From IMG/VR virus record IMGVR_UViG_649989946_000004: a DNA stretch of 35,920 bases; one strand, given 5' to 3'. The notes beneath the pieces were generated by a model that saw only the letters and a list, made by a program, of their open reading frames with translations, ran no database searches and was not told where the DNA came from. Positions within the stretch are counted from its first letter, which is position 1. Every line of letters begins with the position of its first letter. This document shows, piece by piece, positions 3,428 through 11,934 of the stretch. Origin of the DNA: a virus (taxonomy: Duplodnaviria > Heunggongvirae > Uroviricota > Caudoviricetes). Position numbers and translations under genes: made by a program.

Positions 3428-4209
3428 GCTGCCACCTTCTGCTCAGTGGCTTTCTGTTTCAGGAATCCGAGAGCTTTCACTGCTTCGGCCTGTGTCAGTT
3501 CTGACGATGCGCGAATGTCGCGGCGAAATATCTGGGAACAGAGCGGCAATAAGTCGTCATCCCATGTTTTATCCAGGGCAATCAGCAGAGTGTTAATCTC
3601 CTGCATGGTTTCATCGTTAACCGGAGTGATGTCGCGTTCCGGCTGACGTTCTGCAGTGTATGCGGTATTTTCGACAATGCGCTCGGCTTCATCCTTGTCA
3701 TAGATACCAGCAAATCCGAAGGCCAGACGGGCACACTGAATCATGGCTTTATGACGTAACATCCGTTTGGGATGCGACTGCCACGGCCCCGTGATTTCTC
3801 TGCCTTCGCGGGTTTTGAATGGTTCGCGGCGGCATTCATCCATCCACTCGGTAACGCAGATCGGATGATTGCGGTCCTTGCGGTAAATCCGGCATGTGCA
3901 GGATTCATTGTCCTGCTCAAAGTCCATACCATCAAACTGCTGGTTTTCATTGATGATGCGGGACCAGCCATCAACGCCCACCACCGGAACGATGCCGTTC
4001 TGCTTATCAGGGAAGGCGTAAATTTCTTTCGTCCACGGATTAAGGCCGTACTGGTTGGCGACGATCAACAATGCGATGAACTGCGCATCGCTGGCATCAC
4101 CTTTAAATGCCGTCTGGCGAAGAGTGGTGATCAGTTCCTGTGGGTCGACAGAATCCATGCCGACACGTTCAGCCAGCTTCCCTGCCAGCGTTGCGAGTGC
4201 TGTACTCAT
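3424..4209 (-). CDS. bet: Red beta single-strand annealing protein
   Basis: 261-aa ORF; near-identical to lambda Bet by recall; overlaps exo start (operon coupling). Confidence 0.95.
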
Positions 4210-4214
4210 CCGTT

Positions 4215-4511
4215 TTATACCTCTGAATCAATATCAACCTGGTGGTGAGCAATGGTTTCAACCATGTACCGGATGTGTTCTGCCATGCGCTCCTGAAACT
4301 CAACATCGTCATCAAACGCACGGGTAATGGCTTTTTTGCTGGCCCCGTGGCGTTGCAAATGATCGATGCATAGCGATTCAAACAGGTGCTGGGGCAGGCC
4401 TTTTTCCATGTCGTCTGCCAGTTCTGCCTCTTTCTCTTCACGGGCGATCTGCTGGTAGTGACGCGCCCAGCTCTGAGCCTCAAGACGATCCTGAATGTAA
4501 TAAGCGTTCAT
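4215..4511 (-). CDS. gam: Gam (RecBCD inhibitor), short GamS-length form
   Basis: 98-aa [24 protein letters not shown]...[10 protein letters not shown] matches lambda GamS; no in-frame upstream start for the long form. Confidence 0.9.
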
Positions 4512-4586
4512 GGCTGAACTCCTGAAAATGGCTGTGAAAATATCGCCCGCGAAATGCCAGGCTGATTAGGAAAACAGGAAAGGGGA

Positions 4587-4793
4587 TTAGTGATTGAGGC
4601 CGTTACCGCGTCCGTCGAGAAAAACTTCCACGAGCAAATCACGGGTATAAGTGCGCTCGATGCCGCGATGCAGATAAAGCCGTCCGCGTAAATTAGCTGA
4701 TGCAGTCCAGGTACCATCTTTGTGTTTGACCAGCATTCCTGGCATGACCGCACCGCGATTAACGGTCTGCGTTCCGTAATGTTGATGAACCAT
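4587..4793 (-). CDS. Hypothetical protein at the kil/N-equivalent position, first ORF downstream of PL (start ambiguous; frame stays open upstream to 4997)
   Basis: ATG at 4793 preceded by AGGAG SD gives a 68-aa product; the same frame stays open upstream to a TTG at 4997 and encodes an arginine-rich stretch (KRTRERRCDQ). Confidence 0.45.
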
Positions 4794-5069
4794 AAAAACT
4801 CCTGCCCGTAAGCTGGGCTGCTGAACATATAGAGACTTCTGCGCGTATTCAGGCGGTGGATGGCCGCCGGTTGTCATAACTAAGCCGCCTCGTTGAAGCG
4901 ACTGAGGTATAAAGTGTTGTGTTGATTTCAGCTGGTCACACCGACGTTCACGCGTCCGTTTCACCCCTCGCACTCCCCGAAGCCTGCTGAAATTCAAACT
5001 GCGGATCTAAGCGGTCATCGCCACGGTGAAACAGGTGGTTACCGTATCGTTGTGTCGTTGCGATGAATT

Positions 5070-5140
5070 TATTTAAAACTATAGTTGTTTTATCGTCAAC
5101 AACAAAAGTTGTTTTGTCGGTTGTTTTAAATATAACTGGT
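5070..5140. promoter_or_regulatory. Putative OL/PL operator-promoter region
   Basis: Clustered GTTGTT/AACAAC half-sites (e.g. GTTGTTTTATCGTCAACAAC) sharing the half-site of the OR palindrome at 6616-6636; positioned between the immunity operon terminator and leftward early genes. Confidence 0.4.
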
Positions 5141-5240
5141 TGTATTTAGGATGGATTTATTTTGTGACTTGCATCGCATAGCGATAACTGAAGTGAGGTG
5201 TGGTGGTTTTTTGGACGGTATGAGTTATGAGGGGGAGGAA

Positions 5241-5265
5241 AAGAAAACCCGGCGCGGTTGCCGGG
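5241..5265 (-). terminator. Rho-independent terminator ending the cI-lipoprotein transcript
   Basis: Minus-strand hairpin CCCGGCAACCGCGCCGGG followed by TTTTCTTTT. Confidence 0.55.
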
Positions 5266-5299
5266 TATGATTATCAGTCAGCCCAACCTGATTTCGAGT

Positions 5300-5653
5300 T
5301 TATTTGGGTTTCTGACATTGTGTATTTCTTAATCGTGTCATCGTTAAAAAGAATAGTAAGTTCTTTTTCGTACCGTTCGTTCCATTATGGAATAATCCAT
5401 AGAATGGAATAAAAGTGGTGCCATTAACTTTTACTTTTGCAAAGGCGTACTTCCAGATCTCGTTTCCACTGTCAGTATATGAAACAGCATCAGGAGAACC
5501 AAAGTAAGATTTAACCTCATTCTTGGTTGTTTTACCTTCCTGAAGTTTAGACTGGACACTAATTTCAGTTTCATTTTTGAGTTGCTGGTTGCCTGAAGAA
5601 GCACACCCAGCCAATACAGATGCCATCATGGCAGCGATTAGGATTTTTCTCAT
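5300..5653 (-). CDS. Prophage lipoprotein (signal peptide + lipobox LAGC; BamE/SmpA-OmlA-like motif) at the rexAB-equivalent position
   Basis: 117-aa ORF MRKILIAAMMASVLAGC...; motif G.SPD...G.EIWKY resembles BamE-like lipoproteins. C-terminus likely frame-shifted at the T5 run 5334-5338: corrected frame would read ...GTKKELTILFNDDTIKKYTMSETQINSKSGWAD and end at 5278, 12 nt before the terminator. Confidence 0.6.
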   Translation of the reverse strand: MRKILIAAMMASVLAGCASSGNQQLKNETEISVQSKLQEGKTTKNEVKSYFGSPDAVSYTDSGNEIWKYAFAKVKVNGTTFIPFYGLFHNGTNGTKKNLLFFLTMTRLRNTQCQKPK

Positions 5654-5882
5654 TTTATGTTTCCATTCATTATAATCAGAAACATCTTAACATAATGATT
5701 CGAAATAAAAACCGCTACGAGATAGGGGGACATTTTGCTGACAGTAGCAACAAATCTCAGCTAACAACGAGAATATTTACTGAAATATGCAAACAGATTT
5801 GGCGTTCTTATAGAGAATTTAGTGCAATATCTAATCCGAGTGGTATAAACCTTAACCTTCGCTCCCTTAAGTCGTAGATAAA

Positions 5883-6572
5883 TTAACCATGCTTCCTGTA
5901 CGTCTGCGGCATGCTTCCAATGACCTTACCGAATATGAACACCCGGTTCATCTCGTCTTTCTCGATCGGGTCCCACGGCGAGTAGCTCTTGTTATCAGAG
6001 ATAACCAGCAGCTTATCCTTCATCATTTGAAGACGTTTTACATGGGCAGTGTCGTCGTACAGAAACGCATAGATGCCATCACCGTCGAAAGATTTAACAG
6101 TGATATCAACGAACAGCAGGTCACCTGGTTCGATCGTCCCTGACATGCTGTCACCTCGCACGTTAATGATGCGGATATTTTCCGCCTTCCTGCCATCGAA
6201 CATGTGACGAGCATCGTCAAACGAGTACTCAACCGAGCGTAGAACTTCTACAAACTCACGGTTGATTACACCTGGCCCGGCACTGACTTCTATATCAAGA
6301 ACGTCAATTTTGAAGTATTTGGAATGGCTGACAGTTGATTGTATTGGTTGCACTGTACTGTCTGACATATTTCCAACGCCAGAAGATAACCATTCTGCGC
6401 GCACACCCAAAGCGTTCGCGATCTCCACGATTTTAGTTGTTTGGTTAGCTTTCCCTGTTTCGATTTTCTGAATAGCAGCTTGGCTAACCCCGACCAAATC
6501 CCCAAGCGCCTTTTGTGTAAGGCCTCGCGCTAATCTGGCTTCTTTAAGTCTTTCTGAGAGTGTTGTTTTCAT
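5883..6572 (-). CDS. cI: CI-type prophage repressor (HTH_XRE + S24 LexA-like peptidase domain)
   Basis: 229-aa ORF with N-terminal HTH (LTQKALGDLVGVSQAAIQKIETGK) and C-terminal autocleavage domain (GDSM ... HVKRL); ATG has no SD, consistent with a leaderless PRM-type transcript. Confidence 0.9.
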   Translation of the reverse strand: MKTTLSERLKEARLARGLTQKALGDLVGVSQAAIQKIETGKANQTTKIVEIANALGVRAEWLSSGVGNMSDSTVQPIQSTVSHSKYFKIDVLDIEVSAGPGVINREFVEVLRSVEYSFDDARHMFDGRKAENIRIINVRGDSMSGTIEPGDLLFVDITVKSFDGDGIYAFLYDDTAHVKRLQMMKDKLLVISDNKSYSPWDPIEKDEMNRVFIFGKVIGSMPQTYRKHG

Positions 6573-6676
6573 AGATCAAATGTACAACCAAGGTTTTATT
6601 TCATCAAACGAAAATGGTTGTTGACTAAAAACAACCATAGTTTTAATCTTGATTCGGATTAACCACGGAGGTTGTT
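6573..6676. promoter_or_regulatory. OR/PR/PRM immunity switch region
   Basis: 21-bp palindrome GGTTGTTGACTAAAAACAACC (6616-6636) overlapping a -35 TTGACT (6621-6626), 17-nt spacer, -10 TAATCT (6644-6649) pointing at cro; divergent cI start at 6572. Confidence 0.6.
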
Positions 6677-6907
6677 ATGAACCCAGCAATCAAAACAGCG
6701 ATCAATATCGTTGGTTCACAAAAGAAACTAGGCGATGCCTGCGAAGTTTCACAGCAGGCCGTCTATAAGTGGCTTCACAACAAAGCAAAGGTATCCCCTG
6801 AACATGTCGGCAGCATTGTTACGGCTACTGGTGGAGTTGTGAAGGCATACCAGATTCGCCCGGATCTTCCGAAGTTGTTTCCACACACCGAAAAGAACGC
6901 AGCTTAA
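6677..6907 (+). CDS. cro: Cro-like transcriptional regulator (YdaS-type HTH)
   Basis: 76-aa ORF with GGAGG SD, divergent from cI; HTH-like segment QKKLGDACEVSQQAVYKW. Confidence 0.75.
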   Translation: MNPAIKTAINIVGSQKKLGDACEVSQQAVYKWLHNKAKVSPEHVGSIVTATGGVVKAYQIRPDLPKLFPHTEKNAA

Positions 6908-6919
6908 ATTTCCATTTCA

Positions 6920-6933
6920 CGCTCTTTAACAAT
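6920..6933 (+). promoter_or_regulatory. boxA-like antitermination element (putative nutR boxA)
   Basis: Sequence CGCTCTTTAACAAT immediately downstream of cro matches the boxA consensus (CGCTCTTTA / rrn-type GCTCTTTAACAA); no obvious boxB hairpin follows. Confidence 0.35.
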
Positions 6934-6976
6934 AAGCAATCAACTTAACAGTCAATTCAAACTAAAGGAGTCAATT

Positions 6977-7516
6977 ATGCAACCACTTACATACCAACAG
7001 ACTAGCGGATTTATTCCGACTGCGGTGATAAATCGTTCTCAAACAAAACAAGCTCCAGGCCACGAAAAAATCCGTGATGCCGTCCGCGCCTGGTCGGCTG
7101 TAGATAATCAGGATGTCGTTGCCGCACTCATTGTGAATGAGTATCGGGAGCAGGGCGACGGCACCATCGATTTCCCTGATGATGTCAGCCGTGCACGCCA
7201 GAAGCTGTTCCGCTTCCTCGATAACAAATTCGATTCTGAAAAATACCGAAATAACGTGCGTGAACTGACCCCGGCAATTCTGGCGGTACTACCGCTGGAA
7301 TATCGCGGTTACCTGGTTGAGCAGGATAGCTTCATGACTCGGTTGGCTGAAATGGAAAAGGAACTCAGTGAGGCAAAACAGGCTGTCATTCTCAACGCAC
7401 CACGCCACCAGAAACTGAAGGAAATGAGTGAAGGTATTGTGTCGATGTTTCGTGTGGACCCGGATCTGGCTGGTCCATTAATGGCGATGGTGACCACCAT
7501 GCTGGGGGCAATATGA
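6977..7516 (+). CDS. YdaT-like protein (CII-position regulator)
   Basis: 179-aa ORF with AAGGAG SD; segment RELTPAILAVLPLEYRGYL resembles Rac prophage YdaT as recalled. Confidence 0.6.
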   Translation: MQPLTYQQTSGFIPTAVINRSQTKQAPGHEKIRDAVRAWSAVDNQDVVAALIVNEYREQGDGTIDFPDDVSRARQKLFRFLDNKFDSEKYRNNVRELTPAILAVLPLEYRGYLVEQDSFMTRLAEMEKELSEAKQAVILNAPRHQKLKEMSEGIVSMFRVDPDLAGPLMAMVTTMLGAI

Positions 7517-9777: not shown

Positions 9778-11278
9778 TTAAATTGCATCTGCAAACTCTG
9801 GGGTTTTTCGCTCAGGTATAATTGATGAGTTGCTGTTGTCACTTTTTTTATTTTCATGATTACGAATAGCCAATGACTCATTAAAGTCTTTTGCGACTGC
9901 TGTCTCAATAAATTCAATTTCTGAATCAGAGTGTTTTTTAACAGCTTCTTTGATCTCATCCAGAGTAACATAGAAAAACTCTTTTCTACGATTTACAAGA
10001 TTGACTCTCTTTTTATCGAAGACATCATGTAGTTTTTTTCTAATGATGGAGCGTCCTCCGAATAAATCATGGCATGTACATCAAAAATAAAAGGAACAGA
10101 TGCATCACCGAGCTCATTTACACGGTCTTGCGGATCAAGACGTCGTGTCATGCCTATTTTATAAACATTCTCCCCAAAAGAACCTATGTTCGAAATAATA
10201 TAAACATGACCTTGTTTGGTTTGTTGTGCCATGGATAATGCTCTTTGATGCTTTGATTCAGCCTGCGACAAACTCTGTTCTAGTTCGGCAATGCGATTTT
10301 CGAGGCGCTGCTTCATGTCACCAGTAACTTTTTCCATTTCCTTTCTTGCAGCTTCAATTGCTTTTTTATAACGGCGCTCTTCTGCCTCTGCGTCTTGCAT
10401 GGCCTTTTCTATTTCTCGTTGTGCACGCTCCTCCTCTCTCATTTGTGCCCTTATTTCTGCCTGTTCTTCTTTTTCTTTCTGTTTTTGCTCACGATATTCA
10501 TGGGTAAGCCACAATTCCTCAAGTTTTTTATTGAGGTATTTAGTGTTTATATATATATGATTTTGCTCGTTTAGTTTATTTATGGCCTCAAATGCCTTTG
10601 TGATGCGTTCTTCCATTTTAGTGATGTTTTTCCACGTGCAATTGCTAATTGCAGCATCACATTCATTATTAAATGCTCTAGTAGTTAGCCTGATATTTCT
10701 GTCTGTCATTTTTTTACCCTCTGCTCGAGAGCCTTCAACAGTCCATTGGGTTGTACAATATACTGCGCCAGAGTGGGTTTTATCCCGCAGCATTAATTTC
10801 TGTTCATCCCTGATGGATTTTATTTTGTTTTTAAATTGCTCTGAATCTTCAAAATTAAAATGAGGTTCGTAAAATCCTAGTTCGGCTAGCTCAACATCTT
10901 CTGAATAAATAGAAATTTGCCTTACTAGTTTATCATATATTTCTTTCTTCTCTTTATAAGTTCTTCTTAGCTCTTGGATTTGTTTATTGATACCATCCAT
11001 TTTTTCAATGGTGTTTGTTAGTTCATTATTGGCATTTTCTTTTACTTTTAGGGATTCTTCTTTTATTATGGAGCATTCTTGCTCTGTTTTCTCAATAAGC
11101 TTCTTACATTCTTCTTCTACATTAAAATAATCTGCAAAGCGAGATTTGTATTCTTCATTTTTTTGATTGCTATCACTTAATTCTAATTGTATTTTTTGAT
11201 GCGTTTGATTGCAGCTATATAAAGAACAAGAACAACCAATAAAAATATGATTGCAAGTAATAGAGGAGTTTGAGTCAT
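9778..11278 (-). CDS. Membrane-anchored coiled-coil protein with C-terminal T5orf172/GIY-YIG-like domain (DUF4041-like architecture); reading frame interrupted twice at homopolymer runs
   Basis: ATG at 11278 encodes a TM helix (MTQTPLLLAIIFLLVVLVLYIAAIKRIKK) that stops unless the T6 run 11192-11197 is read as 7; main 435-aa ORF (9993-11300) has a long coiled coil and GHVYIISNIGSFGENVYKIGMTRRLDPQDRVNELGDASVPFIFDVHAMI; the domain continues in the -1 frame (LHDVFDKKRVNLVNRRKEFFYVTLDEIKEAVKK...) to a stop at 9778 if the T7 run 10043-10049 is read as 8. Confidence 0.65.
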
Positions 11279-11587
11279 TCGTGCTATTCCTTACGGACAA
11301 TTTAAGACGTTTTGTATTAAATCCTGTTCAATGTGTATGCGGGTGATTGCTACCGCTTACAATCTTCATAATTATCAGTTAGATAGACTCGCTAGTAAAT
11401 AATTTCATTTTTTGCAATATTCTTATTGAATATTTCAATTTATGAAATGAACTCTTTATCCTTTCAAGGCGAAAGGTTTCTTCTTCGGAAATATTTGCTC
11501 TCGTGTGACGTATAAAGACCTTTGATTTTCAAAAATCAGTAGGGAATAATATAGTTACTGTCGGCCTGAACACCCGGTGGTGGGGTT

Positions 11588-11913: not shown

Positions 11914-11934
11914 ACCGCGTTAAGCGGTTTTTTT
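11914..11934 (+). terminator. Possible weak rho-independent terminator
   Basis: Short stem ACCGC-GTTAA-GCGGT followed by T7. Confidence 0.3.

Follow-up and report, generated by a model that had tools for sequence, protein, structure and literature searches.

A putative untranslated leader in place of N and its terminator in the early-left operon of a lambdoid prophage

Introduction

In phages lambda, P22, and phi80, nutL and the antiterminator gene N come first in the transcript from the early-left promoter PL, ahead of kil, gam, and the recombination genes. Some lambdoid phages lack N, and these are generally presumed to use put (e.g., PMC12315714), a cis-acting leader element which acts through the beta-prime zinc-binding domain of RNA polymerase (PMC9378689). 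Which of these arrangements, if either, serves the early-left operon carried by the 35,920-nt stretch of DNA analyzed here (IMG/VR record IMGVR_UViG_649989946_000004; the whole stretch is referred to as the window)? The window belongs to a lambdoid prophage, and its positions 4500-5320 are 100% identical to Escherichia phage PhiR26_1 (PV340555). The initial annotation, made from the letters of the window, recognized no N gene behind PL and pointed to an arginine-rich stretch encoded in the upstream extension of the first leftward open reading frame (ORF). It proposed that either an unconventional N-like antiterminator starts at a non-ATG codon or the phage lacks N and relies on another mechanism, such as HK022-type put RNA or read-through.

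Our analysis makes it likely that the segment 5064-4794 (minus strand) is the untranslated PL leader of an N-less lambdoid prophage, in which kil, gam, bet, and exo need no antitermination because N and its terminator are both absent. Comparison with relatives indicates that the leader is untranslated, that translation starts at 4793, that N, nutL, and put are lacking, and that so is the terminator which usually precedes a conserved hairpin element of the leader described below. In organization, the locus appears closest to the phi80 early-left operon minus nutL, N, and tL1A; as a version of the lambdoid early-left control region, it is ordinary, though not previously described. An operon of this type that naturally has neither an antiterminator nor its terminator would qualify the assumption that N-less lambdoids must use put.

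Promoter and transcript start

Leftward, on the minus strand, the gene order is a cI-type repressor, a lipoprotein moron, PL, about 270 nt without an annotated gene, a 68-aa ORF, gam, bet, and exo. The principal features are:

6572..5883, minus strand: S24-peptidase cI-type repressor
5071..5099, minus strand: PL promoter, with a -35 box TTGACG (5099-5094), a 17-nt spacer, and a -10 box TTAAAT (5076-5071), overlapping an operator-like block
4794..5064, minus strand: putative untranslated 5′ leader of the PL (early-left) transcript, its start placed at A5064
4799..4803, minus strand: Shine-Dalgarno (SD) sequence of kil, AGGAG, 5 nt ahead of the ATG, as read from the sequence
4587..4793, minus strand: kil, encoding a predicted 68-aa cell-division inhibitor of the Kil/KilR family (PHROG 294, homologues, and codon-position pattern)
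4215..4511, minus strand: gam, which comes after kil in the operon and precedes bet and exo

The placement of PL is secure on two grounds: PL and PR have a common 19-nt operator/promoter block that is 95% complementary (inverted repeat I3, 5073-5091 versus 6628-6646), and the spacing from the -10 box to ATCG is identical to that of the annotated pL of phi80. On this basis, the transcript is predicted to start at about A5064. The first 26 nt of the leader match the PL leaders of phi80, HK639, CobraSix, and locus L104 at 20 of 26 positions, without gaps and in the same register behind the -10 box.

This transcript-start segment (5039-5064, minus strand; AUCGCAACGACACAACGAUA...) is kept to the same extent across the N-less clade, the N-type phi80, and the put-type HK639 and CobraSix. 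Matches to the start region lie at 2744-2769 of locus L091 and at about 2940-2965 of loci L085 and L087, and in phi80, HK639, and CobraSix some 50 nt are nearly identical ahead of nutL or put.

The first gene and its start codon

The initial annotation treated the first leftward ORF as preceding a kil/gam/bet/exo block; in fact, this ORF is kil itself. Its product matches PHROG 294 ("Kil protein for bacterial septation inhibition") with an E value of 1.3e-37, residues 1-68 aligning with profile positions 13-80 of 83, is 36% identical to the characterized KilR of the Rac prophage (E = 9e-13), and is listed in PGAP/RefSeq as "phage encoded cell division inhibitor protein" (WP_000233576.1), with a 207-nt coding sequence (CDS). 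The full-length profile match, together with a length and start typical of the family, assigns the protein to Kil/KilR, a placement matched by the location of its gene just upstream of gam; by homology, the product would inhibit FtsZ and cell division. The Kil protein of lambda, in contrast, has 47 aa and is not this protein.

The same comparisons locate the start. Kil homologues of HK225, KO-TP1, HK639, CobraSix, S9-5, and phi80 (68-69 aa) all begin at the equivalent methionine (M-x-x-Q/H-HYGT), with annotated genes of 207 nt in HK225, KO-TP1, HK639, and S9-5 and 210 nt in CobraSix and phi80, and the regions upstream of this methionine are unrelated or in another frame. Translation is thus predicted to begin at ATG 4793, for which the initial annotation had correctly noted SD support (AGGAG 4803-4799, 5-nt spacer), yielding the 68-aa division inhibitor. 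The PhiR26_1 record (PV340555.1, 4498-4875, equivalent to window 4587-4964) instead carries a 378-nt gene for a 125-aa "Kil" starting from GTG 4964. Since the homologues share the methionine start, the sequences upstream of it are unrelated, and RefSeq calls a 207-nt CDS, the longer version is in all likelihood an over-extension.

The resemblance to Rac is confined to the gene. The region upstream of Rac kilR, which includes the small RNA (sRNA) KilS, is unrelated in sequence to the window leader, and a relationship of the leader to kilR/KilS was rejected for this reason. In the Rac prophage of E. coli K-12 (locus L094, 5406-5503), KilS is annotated about 175 nt upstream of kilR on the same strand; two different kil-family genes, Rac kilR and the kil of the window, each have a distinct non-coding element upstream.

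The arginine-rich stretch

As the initial annotation stated, the kil frame stays open upstream to a TTG at 4997: the minus-strand ORF 4997..4587 would encode 136 aa, spells GVKRTRERRCDQLK, and contains ...GVRGVKRTRERRCDQLK.... It was equally right that a separate N-sized ORF is lacking; on the PL strand between the promoter and gam, the only ORF of at least 30 aa besides the kil ORF is an out-of-frame overlap of the same gene. The proposed N-like antiterminator with a non-ATG start, however, is at odds with the absence of a coding signature, with a stop codon and indels in relatives, with the lack of any family match, and with the absence of boxA and boxB from the leader.

Coding potential was assessed with 80 viral contigs encoding an identical Kil, which yielded 63 distinct sequences spanning PL to gam. 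Variable sites in these relatives are distributed as follows:

kil, 4793-4590: 16 variable sites; codon positions 1/2/3, 0/0/16; 19 synonymous and 0 non-synonymous changes
motif-bearing extension, 4997-4878: 21 variable sites; codon positions 1/2/3, 9/6/6; 6 synonymous and 15 non-synonymous changes
segment behind the in-frame ATG 4877, 4877-4794: 6 variable sites; codon positions 1/2/3, 2/2/2; 3 synonymous and 4 non-synonymous changes

The third-position bias of kil is absent from the extension. Furthermore, a CAG to TAG change at 4904 (Q to stop) interrupts the extension between the motif and kil in 18 of the 63 relatives, and frameshifting indels occur in six, four of which have a 5-nt TCAAC repeat expansion after 4926; the other indels are a 1-nt insertion after 4968 and a 1-nt deletion at 4994. 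Unlike an N gene, the arginine-rich stretch bears no coding signature and is cut from kil in about one third of the relatives. Its composition, which the initial annotation found reminiscent of N proteins, does not exceed chance expectation: when the 35.9-kb window is translated in six frames, 69 separate places, mostly in non-coding frames, have a stop-free 14-aa segment with at least six K/R, of which at least four are R. Searches of Pfam and PHROGs gave no match for the extension, a weak negative because N of phi80 itself sits only in a PHROG of "unknown function". In RefSeq, none of the 40 genomes among the matches listed has a feature under the leader, and the 207-nt kil CDS is annotated directly behind it.

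The codons of the motif, AAA CGG ACG CGU GAA CGU CGG, are what the conserved CG-rich leader spells in the kil frame, and the arginine-rich peptide thus appears to be a chance reading of a conserved untranslated leader. Rejecting a cryptic N-like protein avoids a wrong annotation of the kind already present in PhiR26_1 with its over-long Kil.

Search for N, nutL, and put

An N gene was found neither in the window nor in the near-identical whole genome of PhiR26_1 (48 kb), for which no N and a Q antiterminator are annotated. Among the ORFs rightward of P, PHROGs identified ren, an Ant/Rha-like protein, NinB, and others, and no N; directly after PL, there is no ORF of about 90-130 aa under purifying selection, kil being the only ORF. 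The checks for boxA, boxB, and put-like structures suggested by the initial annotation were likewise negative. Within the leader, there is no boxA within three mismatches of the 13-mer CGCTCTTTAACAA or one mismatch of the 8-mer GCTCTTTA, and hairpin enumeration produced no GNRA/GNRNA (boxB-type) loop. An Rfam search of 4000-7200 with E values up to 10 returned only chance hits.

For put, which the CG-rich hairpins of the leader brought to mind, we assembled eight sequences, namely, putL of HK022, HK639, phiEt88, CobraSix, and UPF_BP1 and putR of three of these phages. In their alignment, from which the covariance model R1 was built, 7 of the 13 predicted pairs show compensatory changes. R1 recovered the held-out put elements of Salmonella phage S9-5 (85.6 bits) and Pantoea phage PdC23 (51.2 bits), used as positive controls. 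Its best score over the whole window was 8.9 bits (E = 1.4), inside int rather than in the leader, and the best alignment of the CG-rich domain, with the leader searched alone, reached -0.9 bits. The two-stem put architecture with its CGAACGGC / GUCGG / GGCG.GG / CAAU blocks was not found in the window, and the equivalent of stem II is lacking. The paired left and right copies expected of put are missing too: the leader has no similarity to the PR operon, a second copy behind cro is absent, and neither the leader, its 5′ domain, nor hp2 (see below) recurs elsewhere in the window. A decayed put relic, suggested by a colinear series TTCGG..AGT.CGA / ACGG.CGCG / GTCGG, was rejected, its local score of 16 being at chance level (14.9 ± 2.5 in dinucleotide shuffles; 698 of 2000 shuffles scored as high).

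Comparison thus indicates a phage without an N gene, nutL, or HK022-type put, and the locus falls outside the N/nut and put families because the defining features of both were looked for and not found. Of the second proposal of the initial annotation, the absence of N holds for the window and the PhiR26_1 genome, whereas its named example, HK022-type put, does not apply. The locus resembles carriers of put (HK022, HK639, phiEt88, CobraSix, UPF_BP1, S9-5, and PdC23) in being N-less, and resembles lambda, P22, and phi80 in the position of the leader as the first segment transcribed from PL; it differs from the latter in lacking an N-sized ORF, a leader boxA or boxB-type hairpin, and a tL1-type terminator.

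An exact rrn/P22-type boxA (CGCTCTTTAACAA) is located at 6920-6932 (plus strand), 13 nt past the stop of the YdaS-like cro, which is the classical position of nutR. It is the sole match without mismatches in the window and is not followed by a boxB-type hairpin. Among the relatives, it is present in 23 of 64 loci, always directly behind a near-identical 3′ end of cro, which suggests that host Nus factors might act on the PR transcript without N.

A conserved hairpin element in the 3′ half of the leader

4883..4903, minus strand: hp1, a 9-bp hairpin, AGUCGCUUC-AAC-GAGGCGGCU, masking an SD-like GAGG
4875..4877, minus strand: invariant AUG within a UUAUGA motif, opening a short upstream ORF (uORF), MTTGGHPPP..., that runs in frame into kil in the window
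4852..4868, minus strand: hp2, GGCGG-CCAUCCA-CCGCC, near-invariant in sequence in all carriers

The element consists of CAUACC, hp1 with GAG(G) in its 3′ arm, UUAUGA, 5 nt, and hp2; defined as CAUACC, a 9-bp GAG hairpin, UUAUGA, and GGCGGCYAUCCACCG, it is found at window 4909-4852. The hairpin hp1 is a real structure. Among 27 distinct versions, compensatory changes affect six of the nine pairs (65 cells), 97.9% of the cells are paired versus 33-53% when the partner is slid by one to three columns, no shuffle attains the covariation score, and the covariation is also seen in a seven-phage version of the alignment. The hairpin hides the GAGG 8-10 nt ahead of the invariant AUG. For hp2, near-invariance takes the place of covariation and extends to the synonymous sites of the uORF. 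The uORF itself spans 19-21 codons in phi80, HK225, and HK639, with neither frame nor tail conserved; in CobraSix it has a 1-nt deletion, and the conserved nucleotides downstream fall in one frame in HK639 and in another in the window. The invariance of hp2 at synonymous sites and the unconserved frame and tail of the uORF therefore point to constraint on the nucleic acid. The initial annotation had set against its own proposal a start confined to ATG 4793 behind an untranslated stretch devoid of conserved RNA structure; translation from 4793 is indeed supported, whereas hp1 is conserved.

The segment 4913-4852 is 95% identical to HK225, compared with only about 72% for the adjacent kil genes, and the element is also present in phi80, HK639, CobraSix, S9-5, KO-TP1, and Enterobacter phages. 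In the form CAUACC-hp1-UUAUGA-GGCGGCCAUCCACCGCC, it is widespread in enterobacterial lambdoid prophages, with 58 distinct versions in viral contigs and occurrences in 23 species genomes (loci L095-L215 and L334-L358). Neither the hp1-AUG-hp2 element nor the 5′ domain of the leader is in Rfam, and a literature search covering PhiR phages, the phi80 tL1 region, and the hp2 sequence retrieved nothing relevant and no record of the hp2 sequence. In many enterobacterial phages, the element as defined here is a marker of the site immediately following the first early-left terminator.

The missing terminator

We collected 113 instances of the element from viral contigs, representing 83 distinct contexts, and added 23 enterobacterial species genomes, 22 of them informative. 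A GC hairpin followed by a T-run lies directly before the element in 65 of the 70 viral contexts outside the clade of the window and in 20 of the 22 informative genomes. This terminator is absent from every member of the window's clade, as is any gene that may have stood ahead of it, and ...GACCAGCUGAAAUCAACACAACACUUU-AUACC... takes its place. On the PL strand from 5064 to gam, a consensus scan detected one terminator-like site, which is located within the kil coding sequence (4644-4628) and has three G-C pairs. The terminator hairpins vary between carriers. The genes ahead of them encode 60 distinct proteins; that these might constitute a single N family was considered and rejected, given their diversity and the lack of an assigned function in PHROGs.

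In phi80, where pL, nutL, N, and tL1A precede the element in this order, tL1B and kil come later. HK225 likewise has a terminator directly ahead of the element, which in HK639 overlaps an annotated terminator. The phi80 operon (pL, nutL, N, tL1A, ..., tL1B, ..., kil, ..., gamL) has in common with the window a homologous transcript start, a Kil-family gene, Gam further downstream, and the CAUACC-hp1-UUAUGA-hp2 element, in which hp1 differs by a compensatory change (G-C to A-U). In place of the roughly 130 nt of conserved leader in the window, phi80 has about 700 unrelated nt (nutL, N, and tL1A), and extra small genes separate its element from kil. A third version of the same slot is found in at least 12 viral contigs, in which put runs straight into AAUCAAACGAC(U/C)UU-CAUACC-hp1-hp2, neither a gene nor a terminator separating them. 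The window has its own domain and then AAUCAACACAACACUUU-AUACC-hp1-hp2. Because the flanks on both sides are homologous, the domain of the window fills the position of put, occupied by nutL-N-tL1A in phi80.

The put-linker-element contigs are L104 (6140-6300), L244, L255, L262, L267, L269, L280, L298, L302, L317, L318, and L333; they were filtered from a pattern search (CGGCAAT...CATACYTCAG) that gave mostly chance matches. A CobraSix-type put is joined to hp1-hp2 by a 14-nt linker, AATCAAACGACTTT, which resembles AATCAACACAACACTTT of the window.

The clade-specific 5′ half of the leader

4926..4992, minus strand: conserved CG-rich domain whose kil-frame reading is the "arginine-rich motif" (candidate helices and polymorphisms)
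4903..4928, minus strand: G-free, C-containing, single-stranded 26-nt stretch, AAAUCAACACAACACUUUAUACCUCA, with a TCAAC repeat that is expanded by 5 nt in four relatives

Of 5426 complete E. coli genomes, 2253 (42%) carry the whole leader, at 95-99% identity, and it is conserved from about +1 whatever the immunity type. About 130 nt of it (approximately 5038-4929) occur only in close E. coli relatives, including 16 phages of the phage collection, and none of the hp1-hp2 elements in the representative genomes of other species has a window-type leader upstream. Among the relatives, 17-21% of the columns in the 5′ half are variable, compared with 7% in the 84 nt before kil, where the locus is most conserved. 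The 27-nt run 4951-4925 contains no variable site in the 63 relatives.

A candidate helix, P1, would pair 4992-4983 with 4935-4926, closing around a hairpin, GACG-CGUGAA-CGUC (4956-4943). The polymorphisms within the domain keep or improve the predicted pairing (A-U to G-U at 4988, A.A to U-A at 4985, A-U to G-U at 4959, and C-G to U-G at 4958), a pattern which, in small numbers, favours constraint on RNA over constraint on a peptide. No compensatory pair was found among 46 relatives, which are too similar, and a search of the phage collection yielded no divergent homologues of the domain. The G-free stretch may be rut-like, judging from its composition, and the consensus fold pairs 4942-4933 with 4792-4784 in the start region of kil.

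Expression without antitermination and alternative explanations

In the scenario that we consider probable, loss of the repressor would let RNA polymerase proceed from about 5064 through the leader into kil, gam, bet, and exo without processive antitermination. The leader, under nucleotide-level constraint, probably modulates expression of the toxic kil, to which the SD-masking hp1, the upstream AUG, the G-free stretch, and the pairing of 4942-4933 with the kil start could all contribute. Lambda becomes N-independent when terminators are deleted (nin5), and the logic here would be the same, absence of the terminators rendering N dispensable; by contrast with nin5-type lambda, the arrangement in the window is natural, widespread, and concerns the left operon. 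Several observations weigh against this scenario. GTG 4964 is preceded by GGGGAG 8 nt upstream, and one annotation pipeline took it as a start. The invariant 27-nt run overlaps the "motif" and, while fitting an RNA function, taken alone leaves room for a short conserved peptide. The leader is not neutral, its 7-21% variable columns comparing with 39% for the spacer between kil and gam and 38% for third positions of gam. Its overall folding energy is ordinary (z = 0.37). Finally, sites with a hairpin and a T-run are present in both early operons, at 2089-2075 (minus strand) and 11914-11928 (plus strand). Should they terminate efficiently, expression of int/xis and Q would need some read-through mechanism. 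The first of the two sites lies between orf61-like and TraR-like genes and the second before a Rha/Ant-like gene.

It is hardly credible that an N-like arginine-rich protein is nevertheless made from TTG 4997, GTG 4973, or GTG 4964 and binds a leader hairpin, be it as an N-terminal extension of Kil or as a stand-alone short peptide, MKRTRERRCDQLK, with a variable tail. Of 67 distinct upstream sequences tabulated, 42 keep the frame open, the start context of GTG 4964 and its use in PhiR26_1 would suit such a protein, a small hairpin (GACG-CGUGAA-CGUC) lies in the same RNA, and the 12 motif codons have one common synonymous and only two rare non-synonymous changes. The latter two, at 4958 and 4952, would however be R to W and R to C in the peptide frame, harmful to an arginine-rich motif and neutral for the hairpin. 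A peptide of about 20 aa would also lack the NusA- and RNA polymerase-binding parts that lambda N requires, and the interrupted frame, the absent third-position bias, the missing family match and PGAP call, the chance-level composition, and the leader without boxA, GNRA-type loop, or rightward copy in the window all count against it. Also quite unlikely is a new cis-acting RNA: the domain at about 5038-4926 would do the job of put or nut-N by making RNA polymerase or the transcript resistant to terminators or Rho. Such a role would account for a slot with homologous flanks (20 of 26 nt at the start site and the linker AATCAA..CTTT.ATACC) that in other contigs holds put with no gene or terminator behind it, for conservation from +1 across immunity types, for the invariant run, and for pairing-compatible polymorphisms, and there are candidate terminators further downstream on which it could act. 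Against it stand the chance-level similarity to put, the missing equivalent of stem II, the lack of a second copy for the PR operon, the absence of compensatory changes among the close E. coli relatives that carry the domain, and the ordinary folding energy. If this were true, the prophage of about 40% of sequenced E. coli would carry a third, undescribed early-operon device, and the "motif" would be the protein-frame shadow of its conserved core; the comparison has, in any case, isolated a short conserved domain in the put/nut slot.

Two further possibilities concern the leader as a whole. It might primarily be an attenuator or translational throttle of the toxic kil, built from a long untranslated region, a Rho-loading G-free stretch, the SD-masking hp1, a uORF with a PPP motif, and long-range pairing. 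Compatible with this are the G-free 26 nt at 4928-4903, the concealment of GAGG ahead of the invariant AUG, the exceptional conservation of the 84 nt before kil, and the consensus pairing with the kil start; in the Rac prophage, Rho reportedly silences kilR. We regard this as possible but doubtful: the rut assignment comes from composition alone, the long-range pairing shows no covariation, and hp1-hp2 is not kil-specific, since the element is also found far from kil and before other genes. Alternatively, the leader could be an inert scar of a deletion or recombination that removed N (or put) and the terminator, its conservation reflecting the recent spread of one prophage lineage. The restriction of the 5′ half to close E. 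coli relatives would agree with such an origin, as would the use of hp1-hp2 as a mosaic joint, exemplified by locus L134, which is of the window type upstream and different downstream. A mere scar is nonetheless decidedly improbable, given that in the same relatives variation in the leader is at most half as frequent as in the spacer between kil and gam or at third positions of gam, and that hp1 has undergone compensatory evolution across genera.

Neighbouring features

5247..5266, minus strand: predicted intrinsic terminator of the lipoprotein moron, upstream of PL, at which homology in most relatives stops

The moron itself, a BamE-like lipoprotein gene between cI and PL (5273-5653, minus strand), is frameshifted in the window (A5 versus A6 at about 5364-5368), resulting in an ORF of 117 aa, compared with a protein of 126 aa in PhiR26_1 and NZ_CP098192; the frameshift reflects either a pseudogene or a homopolymer sequencing error. 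To the right of cro, the gene in the cII position (6977-7516, plus strand; "cII" in PhiR26_1) encodes a protein with a YdaT_toxin domain (PF06254, E = 4e-30), which makes the immunity region Rac-like, of the YdaS/YdaT type and not of the lambda cro/cII type. In the nin region, a leftward 435-aa ORF (9993-11300, minus strand) corresponds to a protein of PHROG 1847 (unknown function) that is annotated as defence protein PD-lambda-1 in PhiR26_1.

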